The translations under genes were made by a program, and so were the position numbers. The notes beneath the pieces were generated by a model, which was not told where the DNA came from, did not search any database, and saw only the letters and a list, made by a program, of their open reading frames with translations. Positions 4,421-25,172 of a DNA stretch of 32,000 nt are shown here, piece after piece. The DNA is from Nitrosopumilus maritimus SCM1. GTDB lineage: Archaea; Thermoproteota; Nitrososphaeria; Nitrososphaerales; Nitrosopumilaceae. Each line of letters starts with the position of its first letter. Positions within the stretch are counted from its first letter, which is position 1. Location: NCBI RefSeq assembly GCF_000018465.1, contig NC_010085.1, forward strand, positions 900,001-932,000, read 5' to 3'.

Positions 4421-5560
4421 ATGGCAGTAAAAAATATCACAATTTTAGGTTCTGGAGTAATGGGACACGGTATTGCACAGGTATCAGCTACTGCAGGGTA
4501 TAATGTGGTTCTACGAGATATCGAACAGGGATTTTTAGATAAAGCAATGGAAAAGATCAGATGGAGTTTAGATAAACTAGTTTCAAAAGAAAAAATTTCA
4601 AAAGAAGAAGGAGATTCAATTTTTGGTAGAATCACACCAGTTGTAGATTTGAAAGAGGCAGTGAAAGATGCAGAGTTGGTAATAGAAGTAGTTCCAGAAA
4701 TTATGGATCTAAAGAAAAAGGTCTATGCAGAACTAGATGAAGTAGCAGCACCAGAAGTTATCTTTGCATCAAATACCAGTACATTGCCAATTACTGAAAT
4801 TGCAAATACAACATCAAGACCAGACAAATTCATTGGAATTCATTTCTTTAATCCTCCGCAACTGATGAAATTAGTAGAAGTAATTCCAGGGGAGAAAACA
4901 TCGCAAGAAATTACAGATTTAACTAAAGATTATGTCAAGTCAGTTAACAAACAAGCTGTATTATGTAGAAAAGATGTTCCAGGATTTATCATAAACAGGT
5001 TATTCATTCCAATGGTTCATGAAGCATGTTATGCAAAAGATAGAACAGGTGCAACTCTTGAAGAGATTGATTCAGCAGTAAAATTCAATCTAGGATTTCC
5101 AATGGGAATCTTTGAGTTAGCAGACTTTACAGGAATGGATGTGATTCACAAAGCAACAGTTGAGATGCATTTGAGAGACAAAAAAGTAATCAACCCACAT
5201 CCAACAGTTGAGAAAATGTTTGATGAAAAGAAACTAGGACAAAAATCAGGGGAAGGATACTACAAGTATTCAGATGACAAATATGAAAGAGTTGAACTTT
5301 CTCAAGAGCTTGCTCAGAAATTTAATCCCATTCAACTAGTAGCAAATATTCTAAACAATGCAGCATGGCTTGTAACTAATGGTGCAAGCGACATAGAAGA
5401 AATTGAAAAAGCCGCTCAGTTAGGGTTAGGATTGAAAAAACCGCTATTTGAAACAGCAAAAGAAATTGGCATTAAAAATATTGTAGATGAGTTAAACAAA
5501 CTTGCCGAAGAACATGGAGAGTTTTACAAACCAGACCCACTGCTCACATCAATGCAGTGA
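4421..5560 (+). CDS. hbd: 3-hydroxyacyl-CoA / (S)-3-hydroxybutyryl-CoA dehydrogenase (NAD-binding)
   Basis: N-terminal Rossmann motif ITILGSGVMGHGIAQ, the central SNTSTLPITEIA and HFFNPP motifs of the 3-hydroxyacyl-CoA dehydrogenase family, and a C-terminal helical dimerisation domain. In thaumarchaea this family provides the HP/HB-cycle 3-hydroxybutyryl-CoA dehydrogenase. Confidence 0.85.
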   Translation: MAVKNITILGSGVMGHGIAQVSATAGYNVVLRDIEQGFLDKAMEKIRWSLDKLVSKEKISKEEGDSIFGRITPVVDLKEAVKDAELVIEVVPEIMDLKKKVYAELDEVAAPEVIFASNTSTLPITEIANTTSRPDKFIGIHFFNPPQLMKLVEVIPGEKTSQEITDLTKDYVKSVNKQAVLCRKDVPGFIINRLFIPMVHEACYAKDRTGATLEEIDSAVKFNLGFPMGIFELADFTGMDVIHKATVEMHLRDKKVINPHPTVEKMFDEKKLGQKSGEGYYKYSDDKYERVELSQELAQKFNPIQLVANILNNAAWLVTNGASDIEEIEKAAQLGLGLKKPLFETAKEIGIKNIVDELNKLAEEHGEFYKPDPLLTSMQ

Positions 5561-14011: not shown

Positions 14012-16327
14012 TCATCTTACAGGTTTGTCAGATACTAGAAAAGATAATTGTGCCACTTGTTCACCACGATATTCAGTAATTATTTCGTAGGTTCCTTCCA
14101 TCCAGTGTTTGTTAAGAACTACAGGCATGGAATAAAATCCATCACTATTTACAATAGCAGTCATGTGTTTTGTGATTTTATCTGGATGAATAATTATGAT
14201 TTTAACAGTATTTGATGTAGATAGTTCTTGAATATGTCCAGAGATATTCATGTGGAGATCCCTTGACGAAGTAACATACACATCATTATTTTCAATTATT
14301 AACGAGCCCCCAGAGGTAGATTTTACAAGTAATGTTGGTTGTGATTCATCAAAACTAGTCTCTGGTTTTTCAAAATCTGCACCATATACAATGACAGAGC
14401 CATTAGCCCAAGGATGAAGTGCACAATAATAATCATAGATTCCTTTGTAAGGAAATTCATGTTGTACTGTTTGACCAGGAAACAAAATGTATCCAAATCT
14501 ATTATCATTATTATTAACAGAACCACTAGTTACAGTGTGTGTAAAAGAATCGGTGTTAAACCAAGTTATAATTCCCCCTTCTAAGATTTTTGCATCGGAG
14601 GGAGTAAAACATGAATCATCCATTTTACATGTGGGATTTGATGTACCATGAGTAATTTCAACTTCTTCAGTAAGATTAACCTCATCAACATGATCAGTAT
14701 TTGATTGAGGATTAGAGATTTCCCAAATATCATCAACTTGAACAAATGAAGGGATTCTAGATTCATGCCAGGATTGCAGTAGAATATTAGATGAAGTCAT
14801 AGGCTTTTGAAACATCAAATCAAGATTAATCCATAACCATTCATCTTCATAAGAAGGATATACTTCAACATACTTGAAAATATCATTAGGATCTATAACA
14901 TCAAGAGGTTTTCCTTTATCAAAAATAATTTCAACGTCACTGTTTTCTACAGTTGTAGAGGATGTAGAATAAGTGTATAATGAAAGATGTTCAATTTTTG
15001 AACTTGAAAGCATATCCCATAAACGAATTTGAAGTTGAACTGGTTGATTTGTTTCTGCAAAGAATTTAGGAGCTAGTGTTTTTTTAGAAAAATCATGATA
15101 TAGTCCTAATTTTTTATACGCTCCCATTTCTTTGTAATTCTTAAAATCAGTTTCATCTGAAAATTTACTGTATGGGAAATATTGATCAAATGGGAGATTA
15201 AGAGGAGCATCATATTCTTTGGTATCACCATCATCACCAACATGTGTTGTGAATTTGTAAAGACCAATTCCTTGAATTTGTGGAGGAGGTCTAATTTTTG
15301 ACGTGCCTGTAGAGGTATCAACAGGGGGCAAATAAACACCAGGTAGTAACGTAGTCTCAGTTACAATAGTTGATGAACGACCAATATCAATTGCGTTAAT
15401 TGCAGCAACTTTGTAACGATATCTTGTATCAGGATCTAAACCTTGATCAGAATATGTTGTGTTTGTATTGCCAGTATCAGCAATGTAGATTTCCCAAGGG
15501 TCTGATGCTTTTTTGCGTTCAATTTGGTATCCTGTTATTGGAGACTCACCATCGTATGGTTCATTCCAAGACAAGTTTATCTGAGTATGGCTAATTGCAG
15601 TCGCAGTAAGTCCTGTTACTCTATCGGGTTCTGTTATCTCAGTAGTTGTAGCAGCTTTGGCAGTGGATGCAGTTCCAATCCCAATTGCATTAATTGCAGC
15701 AACTTTGTAACGATATCTTGTATCAGGATCTAAACCTTGATCAGAATATGTTGTGTTTGTATTGCCAGTATCAGCAATGTAGATTTCCCAAGGGTCTGAT
15801 GCTTTTTTGCGTTCAATTTGGTATCCTGTTATTGGAGACTCACCATCGTATGGTTCATTCCAAGACAAGTCAATTTGTGTTGGACTGATTGTAGTGGCCG
15901 AGAGTCCTGTTACTCTATTTGGTTCTGTTATTGCAAAAGTTGTAGCAGCTTTGGCAGTGGATGAACGACCAATATCAATTGCGTTAATTGCAGCAACTTT
16001 GTAACGATATCTTGTATCAGGATCTAAACCTTGATCAGAATATGTTGTGTTTGTATTGCCAGTATCAGCAATGTAGATTTCCCAAGGGTCTGATGCTTTT
16101 TTGCGTTCAATTTGGTATCCTGTTATTGGCAATCCTCCGTCAGAAGGTTCATTCCAAGACAAGTCAATCTGGGTCGTACTGATTGCAGTTGCAGAAAGTC
16201 CCCTCACTCTATCGGGTTTAGTTTGAGCAAATGCATCTTCACTTAACATAAATGAAAATAATACAGATAATGAAAGAAATAAAAAAAATATTTTTTTATT
16301 CATATTCATAGTGAAAAATGAGCGCAT
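14012..16327 (-). CDS. Secreted multidomain protein: signal peptide, 3 x fibronectin type III, unknown ~230-aa region, amicyanin-like cupredoxin domain, C-terminal Ig-like domain
   Basis: The N-terminus KKIFFLFLSLSVLFSFMLSEDAFAQ is a signal peptide (alternative starts at 16309 and 16303). There are three 98-aa FN3 units (LSWNEP..G..PITGYQIERK...Y.V.AIN). The cupredoxin ligand motifs are WFNTDSFTHTVTSG and YDYYCALHPWANGSVIV. Confidence 0.85.
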   Translation of the reverse strand: MRSFFTMNMNKKIFFLFLSLSVLFSFMLSEDAFAQTKPDRVRGLSATAISTTQIDLSWNEPSDGGLPITGYQIERKKASDPWEIYIADTGNTNTTYSDQGLDPDTRYRYKVAAINAIDIGRSSTAKAATTFAITEPNRVTGLSATTISPTQIDLSWNEPYDGESPITGYQIERKKASDPWEIYIADTGNTNTTYSDQGLDPDTRYRYKVAAINAIGIGTASTAKAATTTEITEPDRVTGLTATAISHTQINLSWNEPYDGESPITGYQIERKKASDPWEIYIADTGNTNTTYSDQGLDPDTRYRYKVAAINAIDIGRSSTIVTETTLLPGVYLPPVDTSTGTSKIRPPPQIQGIGLYKFTTHVGDDGDTKEYDAPLNLPFDQYFPYSKFSDETDFKNYKEMGAYKKLGLYHDFSKKTLAPKFFAETNQPVQLQIRLWDMLSSSKIEHLSLYTYSTSSTTVENSDVEIIFDKGKPLDVIDPNDIFKYVEVYPSYEDEWLWINLDLMFQKPMTSSNILLQSWHESRIPSFVQVDDIWEISNPQSNTDHVDEVNLTEEVEITHGTSNPTCKMDDSCFTPSDAKILEGGIITWFNTDSFTHTVTSGSVNNNDNRFGYILFPGQTVQHEFPYKGIYDYYCALHPWANGSVIVYGADFEKPETSFDESQPTLLVKSTSGGSLIIENNDVYVTSSRDLHMNISGHIQELSTSNTVKIIIIHPDKITKHMTAIVNSDGFYSMPVVLNKHWMEGTYEIITEYRGEQVAQLSFLVSDKPVR
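15353..16222 (-). repeat. Three tandem 294-bp intragenic repeats (FN3 units) with long stretches of 100% nucleotide identity
   Basis: A ~177-nt block (ttgcagcaactttgtaacgatatcttgtatcagg...ccaagacaagt) is identical at 15400 and 15694, and identical for ~150 nt at 15988. This produces three identical spurious antisense ORFs spaced exactly 294 nt apart in the track. Confidence 0.95.
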
Positions 16328-16374: not shown

Positions 16375-16752
16375 TTAAACAGATTTTATGTGACCGGCAA
16401 TACGATCATAGATATCAAAAAGCTCTTTTGTGATTCCAAATGCCAAATGGTTATCCCATTTACTACGAATTCTAACTGCATTCTCAGTAGGTTCAACATA
16501 GATGGTTGCATCTTTTACTGATTGTTGTGCAATCATCTCATTTAATTCAGAATCATGATTTAGTTTTTCAGCAAGAGCACCAGTGCCATTCCAACTTACA
16601 CTTTCAACAGTTTTTGCTGCAAAATGACCTCTAGTTTTGAGTTGTGTTTTTGCAACAAAGTTACCAACGTTTCTACCAGTGTCTTTTCTAACGATAAAGT
16701 GTGCTTGATATCTGTCTAGTGCGCCCCAAGGCATTGGATTTGGATCTTGCAT
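16375..16752 (-). CDS. Hypothetical protein (125 aa), downstream partner of a 2-nt-spaced pair
   Basis: ORF with ordinary composition and no motif recognised. Its ATG lies 2 nt after the stop of the upstream ORF. Confidence 0.5.
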   Translation of the reverse strand: MQDPNPMPWGALDRYQAHFIVRKDTGRNVGNFVAKTQLKTRGHFAAKTVESVSWNGTGALAEKLNHDSELNEMIAQQSVKDATIYVEPTENAVRIRSKWDNHLAFGITKELFDIYDRIAGHIKSV

Positions 16753-16754
16753 TT

Positions 16755-16994
16755 TTACCCCTTTTGAATAATTTGAATTACGTCAATGTTAGAGTTCTTG
16801 ACATCAAGACATCCTCTATTTGTTATCATTCTTGCTGTATGAGCAAAATATCTACTGTAATAATCACCTTGTTCAACATCATCGGTTCCAATCTCTTTGG
16901 ATTCAGAATCTATACCGATCTCCTTTAACATACTACTAAATTTCTCAGGCCATGTTTGATAGACGAATGTATCTGGCTCTGTATCATGCATCAA
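16755..16994 (-). CDS. Hypothetical protein (79 aa), upstream partner; ends in A_AAG_GGG TAA
   Basis: ORF with an acidic N-terminus and no motif recognised. See the frameshift finding. Confidence 0.45.
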   Translation of the reverse strand: MMHDTEPDTFVYQTWPEKFSSMLKEIGIDSESKEIGTDDVEQGDYYSRYFAHTARMITNRGCLDVKNSNIDVIQIIQKG

Positions 16995-17073
16995 AAATCA
17001 TGAATCATACCCACAAATAAAGATATCAAGAAAAATTTCCTAGAGATCAATCCAATTAAATATCACAAAAGAT

Positions 17074-18855
17074 TTGAGATTTCTATCTATGTTAAAATTC
17101 CAAGACAAAGTCGCACTGGTTACAGGAAGCGGAACAGGTATTGGAAAAGCCATCGCAACAAAATTTGTAGAAAATGGTGCAAGTGTGATTATTCTAGGTA
17201 GAAGAAAAGAACCACTTCAAGAGGCTGCAACAGAACTTGAAGGAAAAATCCCACAAGGAGTAAATGCAACAGTCAAAATTTTTGCAGGAGTAGATGTTGC
17301 AGATGAAACAGCAATGAATGAAATGTTTGACACATTAAAAAATGAAGGAACCAATGTAGATTACATTATTAACAATGCAGGAGTTTCTGGTCCTGTTACA
17401 TGTTTTGCAAATTCGCCATTAGATGAATTCAAAAGTACTATTGCAATTCATTTGACTGGAACCTTTTGGGGTTCAGTTCAAGCACTAAAAGTAATGAAAG
17501 AAGGAGGAAAAATAATTACAATTTCAACATTCTTTACTGAAGAAAAGCCTCTAGAGCAAAGACCATACAGATTTAGAAGTCCATACACAGCATCACAAGG
17601 TGCAAAGAACAGACTTGCGGAATGCATGTCATGGGAATTAACGGATAAAGGAATTATATCAATTGCAACAAATCCAGGTCCAGTTCATTCAGATAGAATT
17701 TACAAGACAGTATATCCAAAAGCAGCAGCAGAATTTATGAGAGTTAGCGGATTTGAGGACTTAACTCCAGTTCAGGTTGAAGAAGCAAAAGATGATTTAC
17801 TAGAATGTATCGAAGCAGACGGAATTAACAAAGAGGGAATTGCAAAGACAGCAGAAAAATTAGCAAATGGAAGAGATGTCGCAAAATTAACAGAGACATT
17901 TACAAATCTATTAACAAAAATTAAAACTATAGCTGAGAAAGTACAAAACAACACTTCTCACATGATTGCAAATAGAGAATTTTTGTCACAAGCACAAGTA
18001 TCTGAAACAGTTCTCAACTTGTGTGATGATGAAATTGCAAAGATTATCAACGGCAAAGTGATTCCAGGAGATAGAGTATTTTATGCAGTAAAACCTCACA
18101 TTGGAACCACAGCACCAGGAGTTCATCAACCAGACTTTACAGGAAAAGCAGTAGTCTTTACCATTGATGGAACAGACAAGACAGATGCAGAAAGAGTTGA
18201 ATTTTTGGCAAGCCATGTTGAGAAAAATGGCGGTAAAGTTGCATGTTTCATTTCACAATCAACACCTCAAGAAATTCAGGATTCTATTAGTGGAAAATTC
18301 CACTCTCATGTAGTAGATATCAAGAATCCTGAGGAAGTAGAAAGATGGTTAAACACTGCCAAGACAAACATTGGAGAAATCCTAGCAGTGGTTCATGTTA
18401 CAGGTAAACTACCAGAAGTAGGAAATCTAACTGAACTAACCAGAGCAGGCTGGGAAGAATTAGTTGCAAAATTCATATCAACACCAGCAACTGTTGCCCA
18501 AAAAGCACTAGAGCAATTTGTCCCAGGAGGAGGAAAAGATCCAAGACTCTACAAAGACAAAACAGGTTCTATCATGATTATTGGTCCAGACTTGCCAGTT
18601 GGAAAAAAAGTTTCAGGAACACAAAGAGCACAAGTGGAAGTTTTCAGAGGAGCATTAAGACCATTTACAACAACAGTTAATCAAGAATTAAGTGACGTAC
18701 TAAAATCTAAAATCAGAATGTTTACTGTATTCCCAGGTTCTGTAACAGGAATAGAGCCAGACAATCAAAAAATTGCGGATGCATTTAATTTCCTAGTATC
18801 AGAAAATTCTGCTTCATCATCTGAAGTAACTTTCTGTGTTGACGAATCAAGATAA
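17074..18855 (+). CDS. Two-domain SDR-family oxidoreductase: N-terminal classical SDR, ~130-aa helical insert, C-terminal degenerate (pseudo-)SDR. The likely true start is ATG 17089 (MLKFQDKVALVTG).
   Basis: The N-terminal half has KVALVTGSGTGIGKAIA (TGxxxGxG), IINNAGV, ITISTFF, and PYTASQGAK (Tyr kept, Lys position is Gln, Lys at +7). The C-terminal half keeps the strand pattern (GKAVVFTIDG / ILAVVHVTG / GSIMIIGP / IRMFTVFPGSVTG) but lacks the glycine-rich and NNAG motifs. Confidence 0.75.
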   Translation: MRFLSMLKFQDKVALVTGSGTGIGKAIATKFVENGASVIILGRRKEPLQEAATELEGKIPQGVNATVKIFAGVDVADETAMNEMFDTLKNEGTNVDYIINNAGVSGPVTCFANSPLDEFKSTIAIHLTGTFWGSVQALKVMKEGGKIITISTFFTEEKPLEQRPYRFRSPYTASQGAKNRLAECMSWELTDKGIISIATNPGPVHSDRIYKTVYPKAAAEFMRVSGFEDLTPVQVEEAKDDLLECIEADGINKEGIAKTAEKLANGRDVAKLTETFTNLLTKIKTIAEKVQNNTSHMIANREFLSQAQVSETVLNLCDDEIAKIINGKVIPGDRVFYAVKPHIGTTAPGVHQPDFTGKAVVFTIDGTDKTDAERVEFLASHVEKNGGKVACFISQSTPQEIQDSISGKFHSHVVDIKNPEEVERWLNTAKTNIGEILAVVHVTGKLPEVGNLTELTRAGWEELVAKFISTPATVAQKALEQFVPGGGKDPRLYKDKTGSIMIIGPDLPVGKKVSGTQRAQVEVFRGALRPFTTTVNQELSDVLKSKIRMFTVFPGSVTGIEPDNQKIADAFNFLVSENSASSSEVTFCVDESR

Positions 18856-18857
18856 GA

Positions 18858-19307
18858 ATGAAAAAATTTTCAGAGTTTAGAGTAGGTGATGCATTTCACT
18901 CTACATGCAGCATTTCAGAAAAAGAATTAGAAGAATACCTAAATTTTTCAAGAGTTAGAAATGCATTCTTGGAAGACAAACAGAAAGGTGAGCAAATTGT
19001 TTCAGGACGAGCAATCTTATCTAGAATGGAAGGAGAATTTACAAGACTAAGTCAGATTTATGGAAATCATATTATTTTTCTTGGAACAGATGGAGATCCA
19101 GACTGGAAGAATAGAAACACACGATTTCTCAAACCATTATACACAGATCAAGTTTTGAAATTAAAATTCACAATATCACAAGTAGAAGATATGGACGATG
19201 AATTTGGAAAGATAGGAGTAGATTATGAAGGGACAGATAACGAGGGGGAAACAATAGTACTGTCTAAAAGAAACATCTACAGAATCAAAAAAGAGCCTCC
19301 AAGATAA
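18858..19307 (+). CDS. MaoC-like hotdog-fold protein with a degenerate hydratase-2 motif
   Basis: FRVGDAFHSTCSISEKELEEYLNFSRVRNAFLED...IVSGRAILSRMEG aligns by eye to the MaoC dehydratase N-terminal pattern (F.vGd......tit...v..fa.lSGD.NPiH.D......iv.G). SGDxNPxH is replaced by SRVRNAFL. The start lies 2 nt after the SDR stop. Confidence 0.5.
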   Translation: MKKFSEFRVGDAFHSTCSISEKELEEYLNFSRVRNAFLEDKQKGEQIVSGRAILSRMEGEFTRLSQIYGNHIIFLGTDGDPDWKNRNTRFLKPLYTDQVLKLKFTISQVEDMDDEFGKIGVDYEGTDNEGETIVLSKRNIYRIKKEPPR

Positions 19308-19386: not shown

Positions 19387-19764
19387 ATGAAAATTTTACA
19401 CATAGATGATAATGCTACTTTCACAGAAGTACTCTCAAAATTATTGGAACTGCATGATCACACATGTGATGTCTCAAATGATGGAAAAGAGGCACTGCAA
19501 ATGGCTTTGACAAACAAGTATGATGCCATAATTTTAGATTTAGACATGCCAGAATTTACTGGAAATGATTTCATCGATGAGTTAGTAAAGGTAGGAGTCA
19601 TTTCATCGCAAAATATTATTGTCTTGACAGGGTTATTGCCATCTGAACAAGAAGTACAAGACATGATTAGTAAAGGAGTCAAGATATGTGTTGAGAAACC
19701 AATTTCAATTGAAAAACTAAACGACATACTTGTATCATTGACAATCAAACCTTCTACTAGTTAG
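19387..19764 (+). CDS. Stand-alone response-regulator receiver domain (CheY-like)
   Basis: All receiver hallmarks are present: the HIDDN acidic pair, the phospho-acceptor context DAIILDLDMPEFTG, VLTG (Thr) and VEKP (Lys). There is no output domain. Confidence 0.88.
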   Translation: MKILHIDDNATFTEVLSKLLELHDHTCDVSNDGKEALQMALTNKYDAIILDLDMPEFTGNDFIDELVKVGVISSQNIIVLTGLLPSEQEVQDMISKGVKICVEKPISIEKLNDILVSLTIKPSTS

Positions 19765-19768
19765 AGAC

Positions 19769-21361
19769 ATGAAATTATTTTACAGAAATGCAATTGTTCT
19801 TAGTACATTAAATATTGCAGTAGTACTTATCCTTGCAGGAATAGTTTTTGAAAGCATCAAAAATGACAAAGTAGAAAATATTTTATCTGAAAAACAATTT
19901 GAAATAAATTTCAAAGCAGCGGATTTTAGAGATTTGGTTCGTTCAAACATAGAGCAAACAAAACTGCTATCAATTATGCCAGAGATTCAAGGGATTGTAA
20001 AGTTTACAGATTATGGCAGTTCGGGAAGCTTTCAATTTGATGAAGGGTTTTGGTCAGAGTTATTAGAAGAAAAATTCACAGAAATTATAAAAAACAATCC
20101 AAATATCCATCAAATTCAAATTTTTAGTTTTAACGGAAATGAAATCATACATATTTTTTCAGAGAATAGTGGACTACACGTAGAAGATAGTAATGAACTC
20201 AAACATTCAATGAGTAACGATGTGTTACAAAAAGTAACAAAGTTACAAAATAATGAAGTGGAAATATCAAGTATAAAACTTAGTGAAGTAAATAACAAAA
20301 TCGAAGTTCCTCACAAACCAATTCTCGAGGTAACTACGCCAATTTTTCTTAGTAATGATGAACAATTAGGATATTTGAAAATCACTTATGACATGCAAGA
20401 TTTTTTGTATGAACTCAGTCAGAGTGCAAGTGGAAAAATGCTAACAATAGACAATAAAGGATATTTCATTGATCATCCCGATAAATCAAAAATATTTGGC
20501 GATAAATTAGGCACAGGTATCAATTATTTTTCAGATCAGCCAGAATTGAAGAAAAATTTGGAGATATCAGATAATAAATTCCACTATGATGAAGATGAGC
20601 AAGAATATAGGATATGGAACAAGATATCTTATGACAAAAATGATACATCAAATTATTGGGTGGTAGTATCAGTAACTACAGAAGAAGAATTATTTTTGTC
20701 AGTTGAGCAATTGAGGTCAGACGTACAACTAGTCATGATTCCCTTTTTGGCAATAACAATAGTTGTCACCATAATAATTTCAAGACACATGTCAAAACCA
20801 ATCGAAGTTCTAACTGAAAAAATTCTCAAAATAAAAAAAGGGGAGAGTGGAGATTTGATCAATATCAAAGGAAATAATGAGATTTCTCAACTTGGTAATG
20901 CATTTAACAAGATGACAAAATCGTTAAGTCAATCACAGCACACATTAAAAGAATACGAGCAGGCAATGAAAAGCAGTCTTGCAGATGCCAAGAAATTTTA
21001 CAATCAAATAGACCAATCAACTGCAATATCAAAATTTGACATTAATGGAGACTTGACATATGTTAATGAAAAATTCTGCAAGATGACAAAATATACTAAA
21101 GAAGAGTTAATGGGACAAAATCAAAAGATTCTAAGATCAGGATATCATGATGAAAAGTTTTATCGTGAAATGTGGAAAACCATTCTATCAGGAAAGATCT
21201 GGACAGGGAATTTAAAAAATAAAGCAAAAGACGGTTCATATTTTTGGGAAAAAAAGATCATAATTCCAGATGAAAACTCTGAAAATGAGATTATTGGATT
21301 TTTAGCAATTCAAATTGACATACAAGATCTGATGGAAAAAAATTCAAAGGATTGGACATAA
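19769..21361 (+). CDS. Membrane sensor protein: TM, ~290-aa extracytoplasmic Cache-like domain, TM, HAMP, PAS. No HisKA/HATPase kinase core.
   Basis: TM1 is AIVLSTLNIAVVLILAGIVF and TM2 is LVMIPFLAITIVVTIIISRHM. The HAMP-like segment is SKPIEVLTEKILKIKKGESGDLINIKGNNEISQLGNAFNKMTKSL. The PAS segment is ISKFDINGDLTYVNEKFCKMTKYTKEELMGQNQKILRSGYH...GKIWTGNLKNKAKDGSYFW...GFLAIQIDIQD. The ORF stops 10 aa after PAS. Confidence 0.7.
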   Translation: MKLFYRNAIVLSTLNIAVVLILAGIVFESIKNDKVENILSEKQFEINFKAADFRDLVRSNIEQTKLLSIMPEIQGIVKFTDYGSSGSFQFDEGFWSELLEEKFTEIIKNNPNIHQIQIFSFNGNEIIHIFSENSGLHVEDSNELKHSMSNDVLQKVTKLQNNEVEISSIKLSEVNNKIEVPHKPILEVTTPIFLSNDEQLGYLKITYDMQDFLYELSQSASGKMLTIDNKGYFIDHPDKSKIFGDKLGTGINYFSDQPELKKNLEISDNKFHYDEDEQEYRIWNKISYDKNDTSNYWVVVSVTTEEELFLSVEQLRSDVQLVMIPFLAITIVVTIIISRHMSKPIEVLTEKILKIKKGESGDLINIKGNNEISQLGNAFNKMTKSLSQSQHTLKEYEQAMKSSLADAKKFYNQIDQSTAISKFDINGDLTYVNEKFCKMTKYTKEELMGQNQKILRSGYHDEKFYREMWKTILSGKIWTGNLKNKAKDGSYFWEKKIIIPDENSENEIIGFLAIQIDIQDLMEKNSKDWT

Positions 21362-21428
21362 GAATTAAAAAATACAAAACAAAAACTTTGATTTCATTTG
21401 TTGATTAAAAATTTGTAAGTTCAGAAAA

Positions 21429-24179
21429 TTAAGGAGTAGATTCAGTAGTTCTGATAACAGTGCACACGCCATCAATTAGTTTAGTGCCAGTACCACAGAA
21501 ACCATACACCTTTTGAGGCTCTCCAGAATCATGAAAATCAACTGCTTGACCTATTGAAGAGTATTGAGAATAATTATCATCAAACCACTTCTGGAATTTT
21601 TGATCAATGTTGTAACGTGCAACATAATAGTATGGATCCATTGATTCATCTACAAAATCAGCAGGAATTTGTGGAGGTTTCTCTAATCCGACTGCCTGAT
21701 AAATTGAATCGTATTCTGAATAATTGTCATCAAACCACTTCTTGTAATTTGGTTCATTGTTGTATCGGTCAACATAGTTTTGAGGGTCTACAGATTCATC
21801 CACAAATGAAGCCAGTCCCAATTCACCAGGTTCTGTCTTTACAGGTTCAGATGTTGGCTCGGAGGTTGGTTCAGATATGGGTTCTGAAACAGATGAGTCA
21901 TTTACTTTAATCTCTATTGTTTGGGAATCAAATAATTCATTTTTCCTAACTTCAACTACAATATTGTATGTCTGACCACCATCAGAAGATGAAGGTGTCC
22001 ATGCAAATGCACCAGTGTTTGAGATTATTTTTGCACCAGAAGGAGCATTCTTTAGACTAAACACAGGATCTTTGATTGTATTATCAGTTAGTTTAACTGC
22101 AAATGACAGCAATTGGCCTTCATTTACTGTCAATTTGCCCATAGGACTGAGTGCAAGACCAGTAATCTTGGCAGTTGCAGATGATTCATTTGAAGGTTCA
22201 CTAACACCTACAGAGTTTATTGCTGAAACTCTATACGCATATTTTGAATTCTCTACAAGCTCAGAGTGAACATATGTTGTAGAAGAGTTTTGGGTGTCTT
22301 CAACTACAGTACTAAAAGAACCATTATCTTTTTTAGATTCAATCTTGTATCCGGTAATTTCAGAATTGCCATCATCAGTAGGAGAGACCCATGTGAGAGT
22401 TATAGAAGTGGAAGTTTTGGTAGATGCGGTTAATTTGATAGGTGATGAAGGAACAGTCATATCTACAGATGTTGAAACTAGTGGATCTTCAGTAGTATCA
22501 GTAGAATCGGATCTAGGGGTTGCAGAGGCAGTGTTTGATTCCCCTGTTTGACCAAATCCAATATTTGCAGTAACTGCATACGTGTAAGTTTTGTCAGTTG
22601 CCAAATTAGAAACAACATATGTCAAAGTCTGTCCATTAGTACTTCCAACATCATCATAAACGCCAGGAGTAAGTACGCGTTTTATGTTGTATCCGCTAAT
22701 TGATTGTTGGAATGTTTCAGAAGGTGCCATCCATGAAAGTTTTATCTGACTAGGAGAAATTGCAGAGGCAGTTAATGCTACAGGAGTGGTTGTGGATTCT
22801 GGTTTAACTGTAGCAATTGATGATGCACTACTAGTTCCCACAGAGTTGATAGAATATACACGGTAACTGTAGGTTTCACTTTCAGATAATCCATCATGAA
22901 CAAATGAAAATACATTGCTAGATGCATCAGGAGTTATCGCAATATAGTTTTCAGAACCTATCCTATACTCAATCTTGTATCCAGTAATTTCTGGAATGGT
23001 TTCATGTTGTTCAGGAGCATCCCAAGTAAGAATAATAGATGTAGGGGAAACAGGAGATGCATCAACATTTACTGGTTTTTCAGGGGTTTGCACGGCAGGT
23101 TCAGAGTTTAGATCAAACACTTGAATTCGGTCATTTTTAGAATCTGCAACATATAACAAATCATTAGAATTGTCTAAAGCAATTCCAAGAGGAGAATCAA
23201 ACTGTCCATCGGCTGTTCCAGTAGAGCCAAACTCATCTACAAAACACACGCCATCAATAATTTCATCGGTACCATCAGGACACGTAGTTCCATCAACAAT
23301 CTCAAAAATTTGGATTCGGTCATTGTCAGAATCTGAAACATATAACAAATCATTTTCAGAATTTAATGCCAAGCCAGAAGGATCATCAAATTCACCTTCA
23401 TCATCTCCCGAAGAGCCGAATTCTTTGACATAACATATTCCATCTACTGATTCTATTGTACCATCAGGACACGTAGTTCCATCAACAATCTCAAAAATGA
23501 CTATTCTATCATTTCCAGAATCTGCAACATATAACAAATCATTAGAATTGTCAATGATCATTTCACTTGGATTTGTAAAATCATCATTTCCGTTAAAAGA
23601 GTCAAAATCAAATAGAAAATTTCCAGTAGAGCCAAAAACAGAGATTGAGTCATTTTCAGTGTTTGAAACAAATATTTTTCTTGAAGAATCTTGAATTGTC
23701 ACACCTTGTGCACCGCCAAGATATTCATCGTCACCACTATCAGATGAACCAAGTTTGAATTGGAATTCTCCATCATCGTCAAATACTTGTACTCGCTCGT
23801 TTTCAGAATCTACTACAAAAAATTTACCTAATGCATCCATAGCAATGTAAAGAGGAGTGTTAAACTGTCCATCTCCATCTTCTTCAGCGCCATCAGCATT
23901 ATCATTACAATCTTGAATTTGTGCTACATTACAGAAAGTACCATATAGAAAATCAGCATCACCATCATCATCAAATACGTTTATTCGATTATTGTTGTTA
24001 TCTACAACATAAATTTCCCGCCCATTACTTTTCACTATAACATCAGTAGGATTATCCAGTTCATCGTCATCAGAACCAAGAGTTCCAAATTTGAATGAAA
24101 ATTCCACATCAGCATATGCAGTCGGGATTATTGCAATCATTCCAATCAAAAACAGGCTTAAAACAAGATTTTTTTCCAA
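21429..24179 (-). CDS. Large secreted surface protein: signal peptide, NHL-repeat beta-propeller, 3 x FN3, cadherin/Ig-like domain, Pro/Thr/Glu linker, 2 x 50-aa WFDDNY module, Cys hairpin (TTG start)
   Basis: The signal is MEKNLVLSLFLIGMIAIIPTAYA|D. The NHL blades are DNNNNRINVFD, SENERVQVFD, SGNDRIVIFE, SDNDRIQIFE and SKNDRIQVFD. FN3 signatures are LTWDAP...ITGYKIEYR, LSWMAP..ISGYNIKR and LTWVSP...ITGYKIESK. The Ig-like segment is FSLKNAPSGAKIISNTGAFAWTPSSSDGGQTYNIVVEV. An in-frame TAA 5 codons upstream of the TTG limits the start. Confidence 0.85.
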   Translation of the reverse strand: MEKNLVLSLFLIGMIAIIPTAYADVEFSFKFGTLGSDDDELDNPTDVIVKSNGREIYVVDNNNNRINVFDDDGDADFLYGTFCNVAQIQDCNDNADGAEEDGDGQFNTPLYIAMDALGKFFVVDSENERVQVFDDDGEFQFKLGSSDSGDDEYLGGAQGVTIQDSSRKIFVSNTENDSISVFGSTGNFLFDFDSFNGNDDFTNPSEMIIDNSNDLLYVADSGNDRIVIFEIVDGTTCPDGTIESVDGICYVKEFGSSGDDEGEFDDPSGLALNSENDLLYVSDSDNDRIQIFEIVDGTTCPDGTDEIIDGVCFVDEFGSTGTADGQFDSPLGIALDNSNDLLYVADSKNDRIQVFDLNSEPAVQTPEKPVNVDASPVSPTSIILTWDAPEQHETIPEITGYKIEYRIGSENYIAITPDASSNVFSFVHDGLSESETYSYRVYSINSVGTSSASSIATVKPESTTTPVALTASAISPSQIKLSWMAPSETFQQSISGYNIKRVLTPGVYDDVGSTNGQTLTYVVSNLATDKTYTYAVTANIGFGQTGESNTASATPRSDSTDTTEDPLVSTSVDMTVPSSPIKLTASTKTSTSITLTWVSPTDDGNSEITGYKIESKKDNGSFSTVVEDTQNSSTTYVHSELVENSKYAYRVSAINSVGVSEPSNESSATAKITGLALSPMGKLTVNEGQLLSFAVKLTDNTIKDPVFSLKNAPSGAKIISNTGAFAWTPSSSDGGQTYNIVVEVRKNELFDSQTIEIKVNDSSVSEPISEPTSEPTSEPVKTEPGELGLASFVDESVDPQNYVDRYNNEPNYKKWFDDNYSEYDSIYQAVGLEKPPQIPADFVDESMDPYYYVARYNIDQKFQKWFDDNYSQYSSIGQAVDFHDSGEPQKVYGFCGTGTKLIDGVCTVIRTTESTP
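21537..21812 (-). repeat. Tandem duplication (period 150 nt / 50 aa) encoding the motif FVDES.DP..YV.RYN....(Y/F).KWFDDNYS.Y.SI.QAV
   Basis: Copy 1 is ASFVDESVDPQNYVDRYNNEPNYKKWFDDNYSEYDSIYQAVG and copy 2 is ADFVDESMDPYYYVARYNIDQKFQKWFDDNYSQYSSIGQAVD, separated by LEKPPQIP. Confidence 0.85.
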
Positions 24180-24386: not shown

Positions 24387-25172
24387 CTAAAATCCTAACA
24401 AAACAGAATTTCCAGTTAAAGAATCAAAGAACAATTTTCCTGCGGCAATCAAGATAACTACTGAAACCAAAATTTGGAGAGATCTTTCTTTGATATCAAT
24501 AGATAGTCTTGCTCCGACTAGTCCACCAATAAAAGAACCAATTGCAAGTAGGCCAGATTGAAGAAAATCAGGATGGCCCAACAAGCTATGAACAATTACT
24601 CCTGATGATGAAGCAAATAGTAGTATCATTTGAGAAGTGGGGGCAGCTTTTTTCATTGTCATACCCATACCAACTACCATCAATGGAACAAACACGATTC
24701 CTCCACCTATTCCAAAGAAAGAAGATATGATTCCTGCAAAGAAACTAGCACCTATTGCAAAAATCATCATTTGTAAAGAAATTTTCTTTTCTTTTGATTC
24801 GATTTTCTTTCTCAAGAAGATATAAGCAGCAGACGCAATTAATACAAATCCAAACAGTGCCTTGAAAATATCAGAACCTACATCACTAGAAACAATTGCA
24901 CCTAATATGGTTCCAGGAACAGATAACAATCCGAGCTTCAATCCTAAAGAATATTCAATTCGTTTTTGTTTAGAATAAGACATAGTTGATGCAACAGCAT
25001 TACTAAGAGCTGCAAAAAGACTATTACTTGCAGCAGCAGTTGGAGGGAATCCTAGAAAAGTCAAAACAGGAACAACAATAACACCTCCACCCAATCCAAT
25101 CATAGAACCCAACACACCTGCCGCAAATCCTAATGGAATAAGCCATAGTTGATCAATCATATCAATCGCCAA
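24387..25172 (-). CDS. TauE/SafE-family (DUF81) anion/sulfite exporter-like membrane protein
   Basis: About 8 hydrophobic helices with the duplicated family motifs IGLGGGVIVVPVLTF and FGIGGGIVFVPLMVV. Confidence 0.8.
   Translation of the reverse strand: MAIDMIDQLWLIPLGFAAGVLGSMIGLGGGVIVVPVLTFLGFPPTAAASNSLFAALSNAVASTMSYSKQKRIEYSLGLKLGLLSVPGTILGAIVSSDVGSDIFKALFGFVLIASAAYIFLRKKIESKEKKISLQMMIFAIGASFFAGIISSFFGIGGGIVFVPLMVVGMGMTMKKAAPTSQMILLFASSSGVIVHSLLGHPDFLQSGLLAIGSFIGGLVGARLSIDIKERSLQILVSVVILIAAGKLFFDSLTGNSVLLGF

Follow-up and report, generated by a model that had tools for sequence, protein, structure and literature searches.

In the crenarchaeal 3-hydroxypropionate/4-hydroxybutyrate (HP/HB) cycle, the malonyl-CoA/succinyl-CoA reductase of the Sulfolobales is one enzyme serving both steps. 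A large part of the carbon fixed in the dark ocean enters biomass through the HP/HB cycle of ammonia-oxidizing archaea. The model of Nitrosopumilus maritimus has no genes for malonyl-CoA, succinyl-CoA and acryloyl-CoA reductases or for succinic semialdehyde reductase, activities that were nevertheless measured in its cell extracts (PMC6038301). In later work, malonyl-CoA reductase is still regarded as absent from Thaumarchaeota or replaced there, and malonate semialdehyde reductase serves as a marker gene of its own in this group. Here, we analyzed a candidate for these steps in N. maritimus SCM1, a 588-aa protein that belongs to the short-chain dehydrogenases/reductases (SDRs), together with the 149-aa hotdog protein encoded directly behind it. 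The window is the whole stretch of DNA analyzed, 32,000 nucleotides of NC_010085.1 (900,001-932,000, forward strand), and its coordinates are used throughout. The original prediction for this locus had assumed that the malonyl-CoA and succinyl-CoA reductase genes of Thaumarchaeota are unassigned; in line with this, we found no gene assigned to either step in the papers and marker-gene sets consulted, up to 2026. Because they are unassigned, pathway-prediction tools score the thaumarchaeal variant without these genes.

The hypothesis itself is old rather than new. Hallam et al. (2006) already named an SDR of Cenarchaeum symbiosum as a tentative candidate, its N-terminal domain being 32% identical to the malonyl-CoA reductase (MCR) of Chloroflexus (PMC1403158), and that protein is probably the orthologue of the N. 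maritimus SDR. What is added here is the match of the whole module to the halves of MCR, the invariant binding residues, a clade that we call Q-type, a loop-length character, and fusions in bacteria.

Fold and family of the SDR protein

The large protein is 100% identical to an annotated 588-aa N. maritimus "SDR family NAD(P)-dependent oxidoreductase", and its gene is probably Nmar_1043 by gene count, a locus tag that is unconfirmed. The open reading frame (ORF) opens formally at a TTG codon (17074) and would then encode the 593 aa originally proposed; the ORF is real, but its start is probably the annotated ATG at 17089, which gives 588 aa. The stop codon TAA (18853-18855) is followed by the ATG of the hotdog gene at 18858. 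Both predicted ORFs are thus present with their 2-nt spacing, from which we infer co-transcription.

Pfam PF00106 (adh_short) matches residues 12-207 (numbering of the 593-aa ORF) with 145.4 bits, against a cut-off of 26.6. In NCBIfam, the N-terminal domain comes nearest to generic models for FabG, for glucose dehydrogenase and for hydroxybutyrate dehydrogenase, with scores that fall far short of the cut-off in each case, and Pfam and NCBIfam returned only SDR-type and other Rossmann NAD(P)-binding families, with no match to the semialdehyde-dehydrogenase family. The best sequence matches in the PDB are full-length bifunctional MCRs from Chloroflexus and Roseiflexus (8hjw, E 5e-34; 8hi4, E 1e-32), to both catalytic domains of which the N-terminal domain aligns. 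A pairwise BLASTP comparison with an MCR likewise aligned the N-terminal SDR alone, equally to both catalytic domains.

Structure and profile comparisons extend this relationship to the whole protein. In the AlphaFold2 (AF2) model, with a mean predicted local distance difference test (pLDDT) score of 77 and about 90 in the C-terminal half, an SDR core (residues 1-200) is followed by six helices of low to medium confidence (202-320) and a second complete Rossmann/SDR fold (353-576). When this model was compared to the PDB with Foldseek, the top 24 matches were all MCRs, as halves or at full length (best E ~1e-20), with template modelling (TM) scores of 0.61-0.67 over the whole query. The best match outside MCR is the tandem-SDR part of the yeast (Candida) multifunctional enzyme type 2 (MFE-2; 2et6, E 4e-15, TM 0.54), and single-domain SDRs were no better than E ~1e-9. 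Profile-profile alignment (hhalign) spans the full module with the N-terminal half of MCR (MCR-N, E 1e-51) as well as with the C-terminal half (MCR-C, E 4e-44).

The C-terminal domain alone matches an SDR profile (E 7e-20) but lacks every cofactor and catalytic motif (no Gly motif, NNAG or Tyr/Lys), as expected of the pseudo-SDR that had been foreseen in this half. The helical insert between the halves also exists, although its dimensions differ from the ~130 aa first estimated: about 145 residues separate the two Rossmann cores, of which ~90 form an extra lid and the remainder are normal C-terminal SDR elements. Because structure, profile and fold matches all lead to MCR, the modelled architecture of a catalytic SDR plus a pseudo-SDR, as in MCR, is well supported, and the MCR-like pairing of SDR domains in the original prediction is borne out. 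We found no second MCR module in the window or in related loci, and the protein does not have the four-SDR architecture of ~1,220 aa.

Active site, Q-type clade and candidate reaction

In the MCR-C of Chloroflexus aurantiacus, malonate is bound by Ser719, Tyr731, Arg734, Tyr737 and Arg773, Arg734 has been proposed as a key catalytic residue, and Lys741 hydrogen-bonds the NADP ribose (bioRxiv 10.1101/2023.03.21.533589). Equivalent residues are also given in a second study, and the carboxylate-binding Tyr/Arg are common to both MCR halves (PMC10470521). By sequence alignment, as distinct from geometry, the five malonate-binding residues correspond to Thr147, Tyr160, Arg163, Tyr166 and Arg203 of the N. 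maritimus SDR, and Lys741 to Gln170. All six, together with Lys173, are invariant in 241 of 241 full-length archaeal homologues (46-100% identity). The cofactor motif TGSGTGIG and NNAG, both noted from the start, are kept in at least 240 of these, as is a GRR pair after strand 2; the departures in TGSGTGIG, NNAG and YTASQGAK are confined to one sequence each at one or two positions. The GRR pair suggests the use of NADPH, and the reductase steps of N. maritimus are given as NADPH-dependent in the model paper (PMC6038301).

Of special interest is the active-site helix, YTASQGAK. It does not follow YxxxK: the position four residues after Tyr166 is the invariant Gln170, and Lys173 follows at +7. 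The original prediction had pointed out both the Lys-to-Gln exchange and the Lys two helical turns from the Tyr, and each is present throughout the 241 homologues. Since Gln170 is invariant, the exchange is a fixed feature of a functional site and not decay. A catalytic Ser had been placed in ITISTFF; a hydroxyl residue does lie there, but Ser146 varies between S, A, T and G, and it is its neighbor Thr147, in I-S-T, that provides the conserved catalytic hydroxyl. The pseudo-SDR carries a near-invariant segment, EVFRGALRPF, in which Phe519, Arg520, Gly521, Leu523, Arg524 and Pro525 are fully invariant.

A relative of the SDR protein is encoded in 546 species-representative genomes, and the best 80 of these loci, which we compared, are all Nitrosopumilaceae-type. 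When 1.84 billion representative proteins were searched exhaustively with HMMER, only 50 reached the cut-off of E <=1e-30. Four kinds of protein make up this set: archaeal orthologues present as fragments; P0241, a distant full-length archaeal homologue (47% identity); Chloroflexus-type MCRs; and bacterial multi-module proteins. No stand-alone homologue from outside the archaea was seen at the top of this search. The branch of P0241 includes Nitrososphaerales metagenome-assembled genomes (MAGs) and Candidatus Nitrososphaera gargensis, and the gene is thus present in ammonia-oxidizing archaea from Nitrosopumilus to Nitrososphaera. A scan of metagenome contigs with P0241 added three useful short loci.

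Motif scanning sorts the catalytic domains of MCR type into four classes. Class A (MCR-N) reads Y-[FY]-G-R-x2-Y-x2-P-K, class B (MCR-C) Y-P-N-R-x-D-Y-A-x-S-K, class C (the Q-type, with the N. maritimus SDR) Y-x2-R-x2-Y-T-x-[AS]-Q-x2-K, and class D Y-x-F-R-x2-Y-x3-K. In the majority of the bacterial proteins, D is found on the C-terminal side of the C module; in P0246, it lies upstream of C. In a neighbor-joining tree, A, B, C and D form four separate clades that together stand apart from ordinary SDRs. The classes also differ in how far the first Tyr lies from the catalytic Ser/Thr: A and D have a spacing of 7, B one of 12 and C one of 13-14 (13 in the comparison of the N. maritimus SDR), and each bifunctional protein combines one long-loop with one short-loop module. 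Because the long-loop module reduces the CoA ester in the characterized enzyme, parsimony suggests the same role for C; this analogy is the weakest link in our argument.

The domains fused to the Q-type modules in bacteria add an independent argument by association. In P0274 and P0410, a zinc-dependent alcohol dehydrogenase (zinc-ADH) type enoyl reductase is followed by an enoyl-CoA hydratase (ECH), then the C and then the D module; P0319 contains ECH, AMP-binding (CoA-ligase), C and D modules; and a motif scan found AMP-binding core motifs besides Q-type modules in P0246 and P0292. The names attached to one bacterial cluster point to Binatia and Desulfobacterota-type bacteria. Judged by its domains, this set corresponds to a propionyl-CoA synthase plus a malonyl-CoA reductase and spans every step between malonyl-CoA and propionyl-CoA. 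Several of these proteins are giant polyproteins (P0245, 5,945 aa; P0246, 5,572 aa; P0292, 6,910 aa; P0319, 4,553 aa) that look like single-chain 3-hydroxypropionate assembly lines. A hydratase domain is confirmed in P0319 and was recognized by eye in P0246, as was an enoyl-reductase-like stretch in the latter. The source annotation of P0245 is GTP-dependent phosphoenolpyruvate carboxykinase.

From these motifs and matches, we give about even chances to the 588-aa SDR being the NADPH-dependent malonyl-CoA reductase, and perhaps also the succinyl-CoA reductase, of the thaumarchaeal HP/HB cycle. In such an enzyme, NADPH would be bound in the N-terminal SDR domain, and a C3 or C4 acyl-CoA would be held at its free carboxylate by Tyr160, Arg163 and Arg203. 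Thr147 and Tyr166 would polarize the thioester carbonyl for hydride transfer, after which CoA and the semialdehyde would be released, malonate semialdehyde in the case of malonyl-CoA. Gln170 may take the place of the usual Lys at the nicotinamide ribose, with Lys173 one helical turn beyond it and two from the Tyr. The helical lid and the pseudo-SDR may close the CoA pocket and supply a scaffold for a dimer. Double duty as succinyl-CoA reductase would be comparable to the single enzyme of the Sulfolobales. The substrate, the direction of the reaction and all of these mechanistic roles are inferred, from a fold, a family membership, conserved residues, a distribution and bacterial fusions that are themselves shown.

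A number of observations weigh against this assignment. The canonical catalytic Lys is absent, and we found no characterized enzyme with a Y-x3-Q-x2-K site in the literature, nor any report of activity for the C. symbiosum candidate named in 2006. The loops around the active site have pLDDT below 50 in the AF2 model (residues 99-110, 150-162 and 201-212). Profile comparison detected no homology between the core of the lid and the lids of MCR, including that of MCR-C; the D module of the bacterial proteins carries a lid of similar length, so the presence of a lid does not discriminate between an aldehyde- and an alcohol-forming role. The branching order of A-D in the tree is not settled, and the Q-type clade is sister to neither MCR half. 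No link to HP/HB genes was found in the gene neighborhood at the loci examined. Finally, MCR-N slightly outscores MCR-C in the profile alignment given above and in Foldseek, where TM is 0.72 against 0.57-0.60 when normalized by the target and 0.63-0.67 against 0.61-0.66 when normalized by the query.

These last scores favor the main rival, an aldehyde reductase like MCR-N that would convert succinic or malonate semialdehyde to the hydroxy acid. The carboxylate-binding Tyr/Arg, shared by both MCR halves, would suit it equally, and succinic semialdehyde reductase is among the four enzymes missing in N. maritimus (PMC6038301). However, the long catalytic loop fits the CoA-ester half and not the short-loop aldehyde reductases; a site that has lost its Tyr-acidifying Lys is, as judged from SDR chemistry, poorly suited to forming an alcohol; and in the bacterial fusions a short-loop module with canonical YxxxK already adjoins the Q-type module. 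We therefore consider an aldehyde reductase rather unlikely.

The hotdog protein and the surrounding genes

The 149-aa protein is labelled "hypothetical" in every source and has no match in Pfam (including MaoC_dehydratas) or NCBIfam. Its AF2 model, built on a shallow alignment, has the topology of a single hotdog with an N-terminal segment that overhangs (pLDDT 76, predicted TM score 0.70), and the Foldseek matches are 1q6w (E 4e-7, TM 0.74), then 4ffu and PhaJ (1iq6), with E up to 4e-6, and HadAB. A profile search gave a marginal match to 1q6w (E 0.016) over the C-terminal strands, including the R-F-L-x-P strand. An alignment of 26 sequences shows neither a His nor a conserved Asp between residue 20 and residue 50, where the central helix begins. 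The segment before this helix reads F-S-R-V-R-N-A-F-L, which probably stands where PhaJ has its hydratase-2 motif. The degenerate MaoC-like hotdog that had been proposed here is consistent with this model and alignment. Invariant residues include Arg51, Arg56, Glu58, Glu60, Arg63, Asp80, Trp83, Arg86 and Arg89, which indicates that the protein is under selection for some function.

Its distribution is narrower than that of the SDR. Among the Nitrosopumilus-type loci, 78 are informative for the downstream gene; in 65 of them the hotdog gene comes immediately after that of the SDR, and nothing alike lies downstream in the remaining 13. It is also absent, at the locus itself, from the SDR loci of the P0241 lineage and of the N. 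gargensis type. Across loci, the hotdog protein diverges faster (54-97% identity) than the SDR (79-99%). In a few MAGs, the gene contains stop codons or frameshifts (L048, 7773-8403; L047, 6883-7035; L017, 7769-8221), which could mean either that an accessory gene is truly decaying or that the assemblies are in error.

An SDR followed by a MaoC-like gene recalls fungal MFE-2, with its tandem SDRs and then a hydratase 2, and the tandem-SDR dehydrogenase part of the Candida enzyme is the best fold match outside MCR. The SDR could accordingly act on CoA esters or other substrates outside the HP/HB cycle, for instance as a 3-hydroxyacyl-CoA or 3-oxoacyl-CoA dehydrogenase, in line with the generic dehydrogenase models that come nearest in NCBIfam, far below their cut-offs. 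We find this role improbable: MCR structures outscore MFE-2 by far, the second SDR is non-catalytic, the hotdog protein has no hydratase dyad and is missing from the SDR locus in many genomes, and the malonate-binding residues that are kept point to a carboxylated substrate.

The same distribution speaks against the reductase complex of the original prediction, in which the SDR and the degenerate hotdog protein would form an obligate two-protein enzyme with the hotdog as substrate-binding subunit. The 2-nt gap, the adjacency in 65 of 78 loci, the many invariant hotdog residues and the presence of the non-catalytic hotdog partners HadA and HadC among the fold matches would all suit such a complex. 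Yet the SDR is conserved throughout the 13 Nitrosopumilus-type loci, the P0241 lineage and the N. gargensis-type loci in which no hotdog gene follows it. Because the hotdog gene is absent at many loci and evolves faster, an obligate complex is quite improbable, and the hotdog protein is a lineage-restricted accessory, seen only in Nitrosopumilus-type loci, that is unlikely to be a required subunit.

In the enoyl reductases FabI and InhA, the Tyr and Lys lie seven residues apart. The spacing of Tyr166 and Lys173 is the same, and acryloyl-CoA reductase also has no gene in the N. maritimus model, but an enoyl-thioester reductase with a FabI-like Tyr-x6-Lys pair is very hard to credit for this protein, as Tyr166 takes the place of MCR's canonical Tyr in the alignment, which makes Lys the displaced residue and not Tyr as in FabI, a zinc-ADH-type enoyl reductase is already present within the bacterial fusions, and the overall relatedness is to MCR.

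The features of the locus are collected in Table 1.

Table 1. Positions of the genes, domains and regulatory region discussed, in window coordinates.
Feature	Position	Strand	Basis or remark
hbd (Nmar_1028)	4421-5560		Locus tag per PMC8287830
125-aa thaumarchaeal protein gene	16375..16752	-	Second member of conserved neighboring pair
79-aa thaumarchaeal protein gene	16755..16994	-	Adjoins SDR gene in 3/3 lineages sampled
Divergent intergenic region, two conserved boxes	16995..17088	.	Comparison of 65 distinct loci
SDR gene, 588-aa MCR-family half-enzyme	17089..18855	+	Pfam adh_short; Foldseek top 24 all MCR structures
Catalytic SDR domain, aa 1-200	17089..17688	+	TGSGTGIG, GRR, NNAG, Thr147, Tyr160, Arg163, Tyr166, Gln170, Lys173
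PGPVHSDR loop with Arg203; helical lid, ~aa 205-295; C-terminal SDR elements, aa 296-345	17689..18123	+	AF2
Pseudo-SDR domain, aa 346-588	18124..18852	+	Rossmann fold without Gly motif, NNAG or Tyr/Lys
149-aa MaoC-like hotdog gene, without Asp/His dyad	18858..19307	+	AF2 model, Foldseek

The original prediction had also given weight to the hbd gene of the cycle lying 12 kb away. The genes between hbd and the SDR gene are unrelated (EF-1 alpha, fructose bisphosphate aldolase/phosphatase, DNA ligase, tRNA-intron endonuclease and a large surface protein), and the context differs in the N. gargensis-type locus, with purine-synthesis genes near the SDR gene and no hbd. We therefore rejected gene neighborhood as functional evidence.

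Upstream of the SDR gene, the 94-nt divergent intergenic region hardly varies between 65 distinct loci of related genomes. Two boxes (17010-17030 and 17045-17063) are conserved in at least 95% of these Nitrosopumilus-type loci, and the second ends in a TATA-like aattaaatat, 26 nt before the ATG at 17089. The boxes probably represent the two promoters and may also form a shared regulatory site.

The genes of the 79-aa and 125-aa proteins adjoin the SDR gene in all three lineages, Nitrosopumilus, P0241 (40% GC) and N. gargensis-type, and this pair is a better conserved neighbor of the SDR than the hotdog gene. It is divergent from the SDR gene in Nitrosopumilus and the P0241 lineage, and lies on the same strand, directly upstream and operon-like, in the N. 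gargensis-type locus (pair coordinates in other loci: L089, 7209-7925; L082, 372-1057). Neither protein has a family match, and profile searches gave non-significant matches only, among them faint ones that relate the 125-aa protein to PII proteins, in their C-terminal strand (E 0.3-1). A 2019 survey classed Nmar_1042, the only one of the locus tags Nmar_1040 to Nmar_1045 that our literature search found, as thaumarchaea-specific and uncharacterized; by gene count, it is probably one of these two proteins, an identity that is unconfirmed.

On the minus strand (14012-16327), a 771-aa secreted-looking protein contains three near-identical tandem repeats of ~90 aa (ITGYQIERKKASDPWEIYIADTGNTNTTYSDQGLDPDTRYRYKVAAINAI...) and, in its C-terminal part, a cupredoxin-like C-A-L-H-P-W motif; it has homologues in 3 of the best 80 loci. 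What lies downstream of the hotdog gene (19387-24179) is a variable insertion zone: the response regulator, the PAS-containing sensor-like protein and the repeat-rich surface protein of 916 aa encoded there occur in no more than 2-4 of the best 80 loci. A gene for a TauE/SafE-family exporter lies ~5.5 kb downstream of the SDR gene in N. maritimus (24387-25172, minus strand) and directly downstream of it in the N. gargensis-type locus (L089, 9862-10632), a position that may be a remnant of ancestral gene order.

Significance and comparison with known systems

Taken together, these observations lead us to a joint reading that we put forward tentatively, at somewhat less than even chances. The SDR would be the missing thaumarchaeal MCR of the HP/HB cycle, possibly also its succinyl-CoA reductase, working as a stand-alone half-enzyme through a Thr/Tyr/Arg site without the SDR Lys. 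Q-type modules would be the CoA-ester half of a second, hitherto unrecognized bacterial MCR lineage within 3-hydroxypropionate megaenzymes, and the conserved pair of small proteins could be regulators or partners. If this is true, the HP/HB pathway would be closed and a specific marker for archaeal dark carbon fixation would become available. Thioester reduction by an SDR would then be shown to be possible without the canonical Lys, and the enzyme would be a compact, mesophilic and, given its aerobic host, probably oxygen-tolerant one for the production of 3-hydroxypropionate and 4-hydroxybutyrate. A function could also be assigned to the bacterial two-module proteins and to the giant polyproteins that resemble malonyl-CoA-to-propionyl-CoA assembly lines.

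Among described systems, we compared the SDR with MCR-C (SDR3, lid and SDR4) of Chloroflexus, Roseiflexus and Porphyrobacter (PDB 8a30, 8a8t, 6k8s, 8hi5). In both, a catalytic SDR is joined to a non-catalytic one by a helical insert that follows strand 6; both have the Y-x2-R-x2-Y motif and an Arg after PGPV, which bind malonate in MCR-C; and both have a long loop from the catalytic Ser/Thr to the first Tyr and use NADPH, a use that is predicted in the case of N. maritimus. MCR-C is, however, half of a 1,220-aa protein with four SDRs, whereas the N. maritimus SDR stands alone with 588 aa and has a lid about half as long and without sequence homology. It belongs to a separate clade, with Gln and a Lys at +7 in place of the YxxxK Lys. 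Arg1164 of SDR4 is not kept in the profile alignment, and the N. maritimus pseudo-SDR has its own invariant FRGALRP.

The malonate semialdehyde reductase half, MCR-N (SDR1 and SDR2; PDB 8aew, 6k8v, 8hi6), shares the two-SDR module and the Tyr/Arg carboxylate motif; it differs by a catalytic loop that is 6 residues shorter, by the absence of a large lid and by a canonical YxxPK. The Sulfolobales enzyme, of the aspartate-semialdehyde-dehydrogenase family (KEGG K15017), catalyzes the reaction that we propose for the N. maritimus SDR, but is of an unrelated fold and family, and is lacking or replaced in Thaumarchaea.

For the hotdog protein, the likeness to MaoC-like hotdogs (Archaeoglobus fulgidus 1q6w, NodN-like 4ffu, PhaJ 1iq6, HadA/HadB/HadC) lies in the predicted fold and in the R-F-L-x-P strand motif. 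Unlike them, it has neither a Pfam MaoC match nor the Asp/His dyad, and a set of charged residues on the central helix and behind it is invariant in a way of its own.

The closest relatives outside the archaea are the bacterial proteins P0263 (a two-module protein of 1,135 aa), P0258, P0274, P0410, P0246, P0245, P0292 and P0319, which are 28-37% identical, align over the full length in P0245 and P0246, and share the Q-type module with its Y-T-x-A/S-Q-x-x-K motif. What sets them apart from the N. maritimus protein is that this module is fused to a short-loop module with canonical YxxxK, and often to ECH, zinc-ADH and AMP-binding domains as well.

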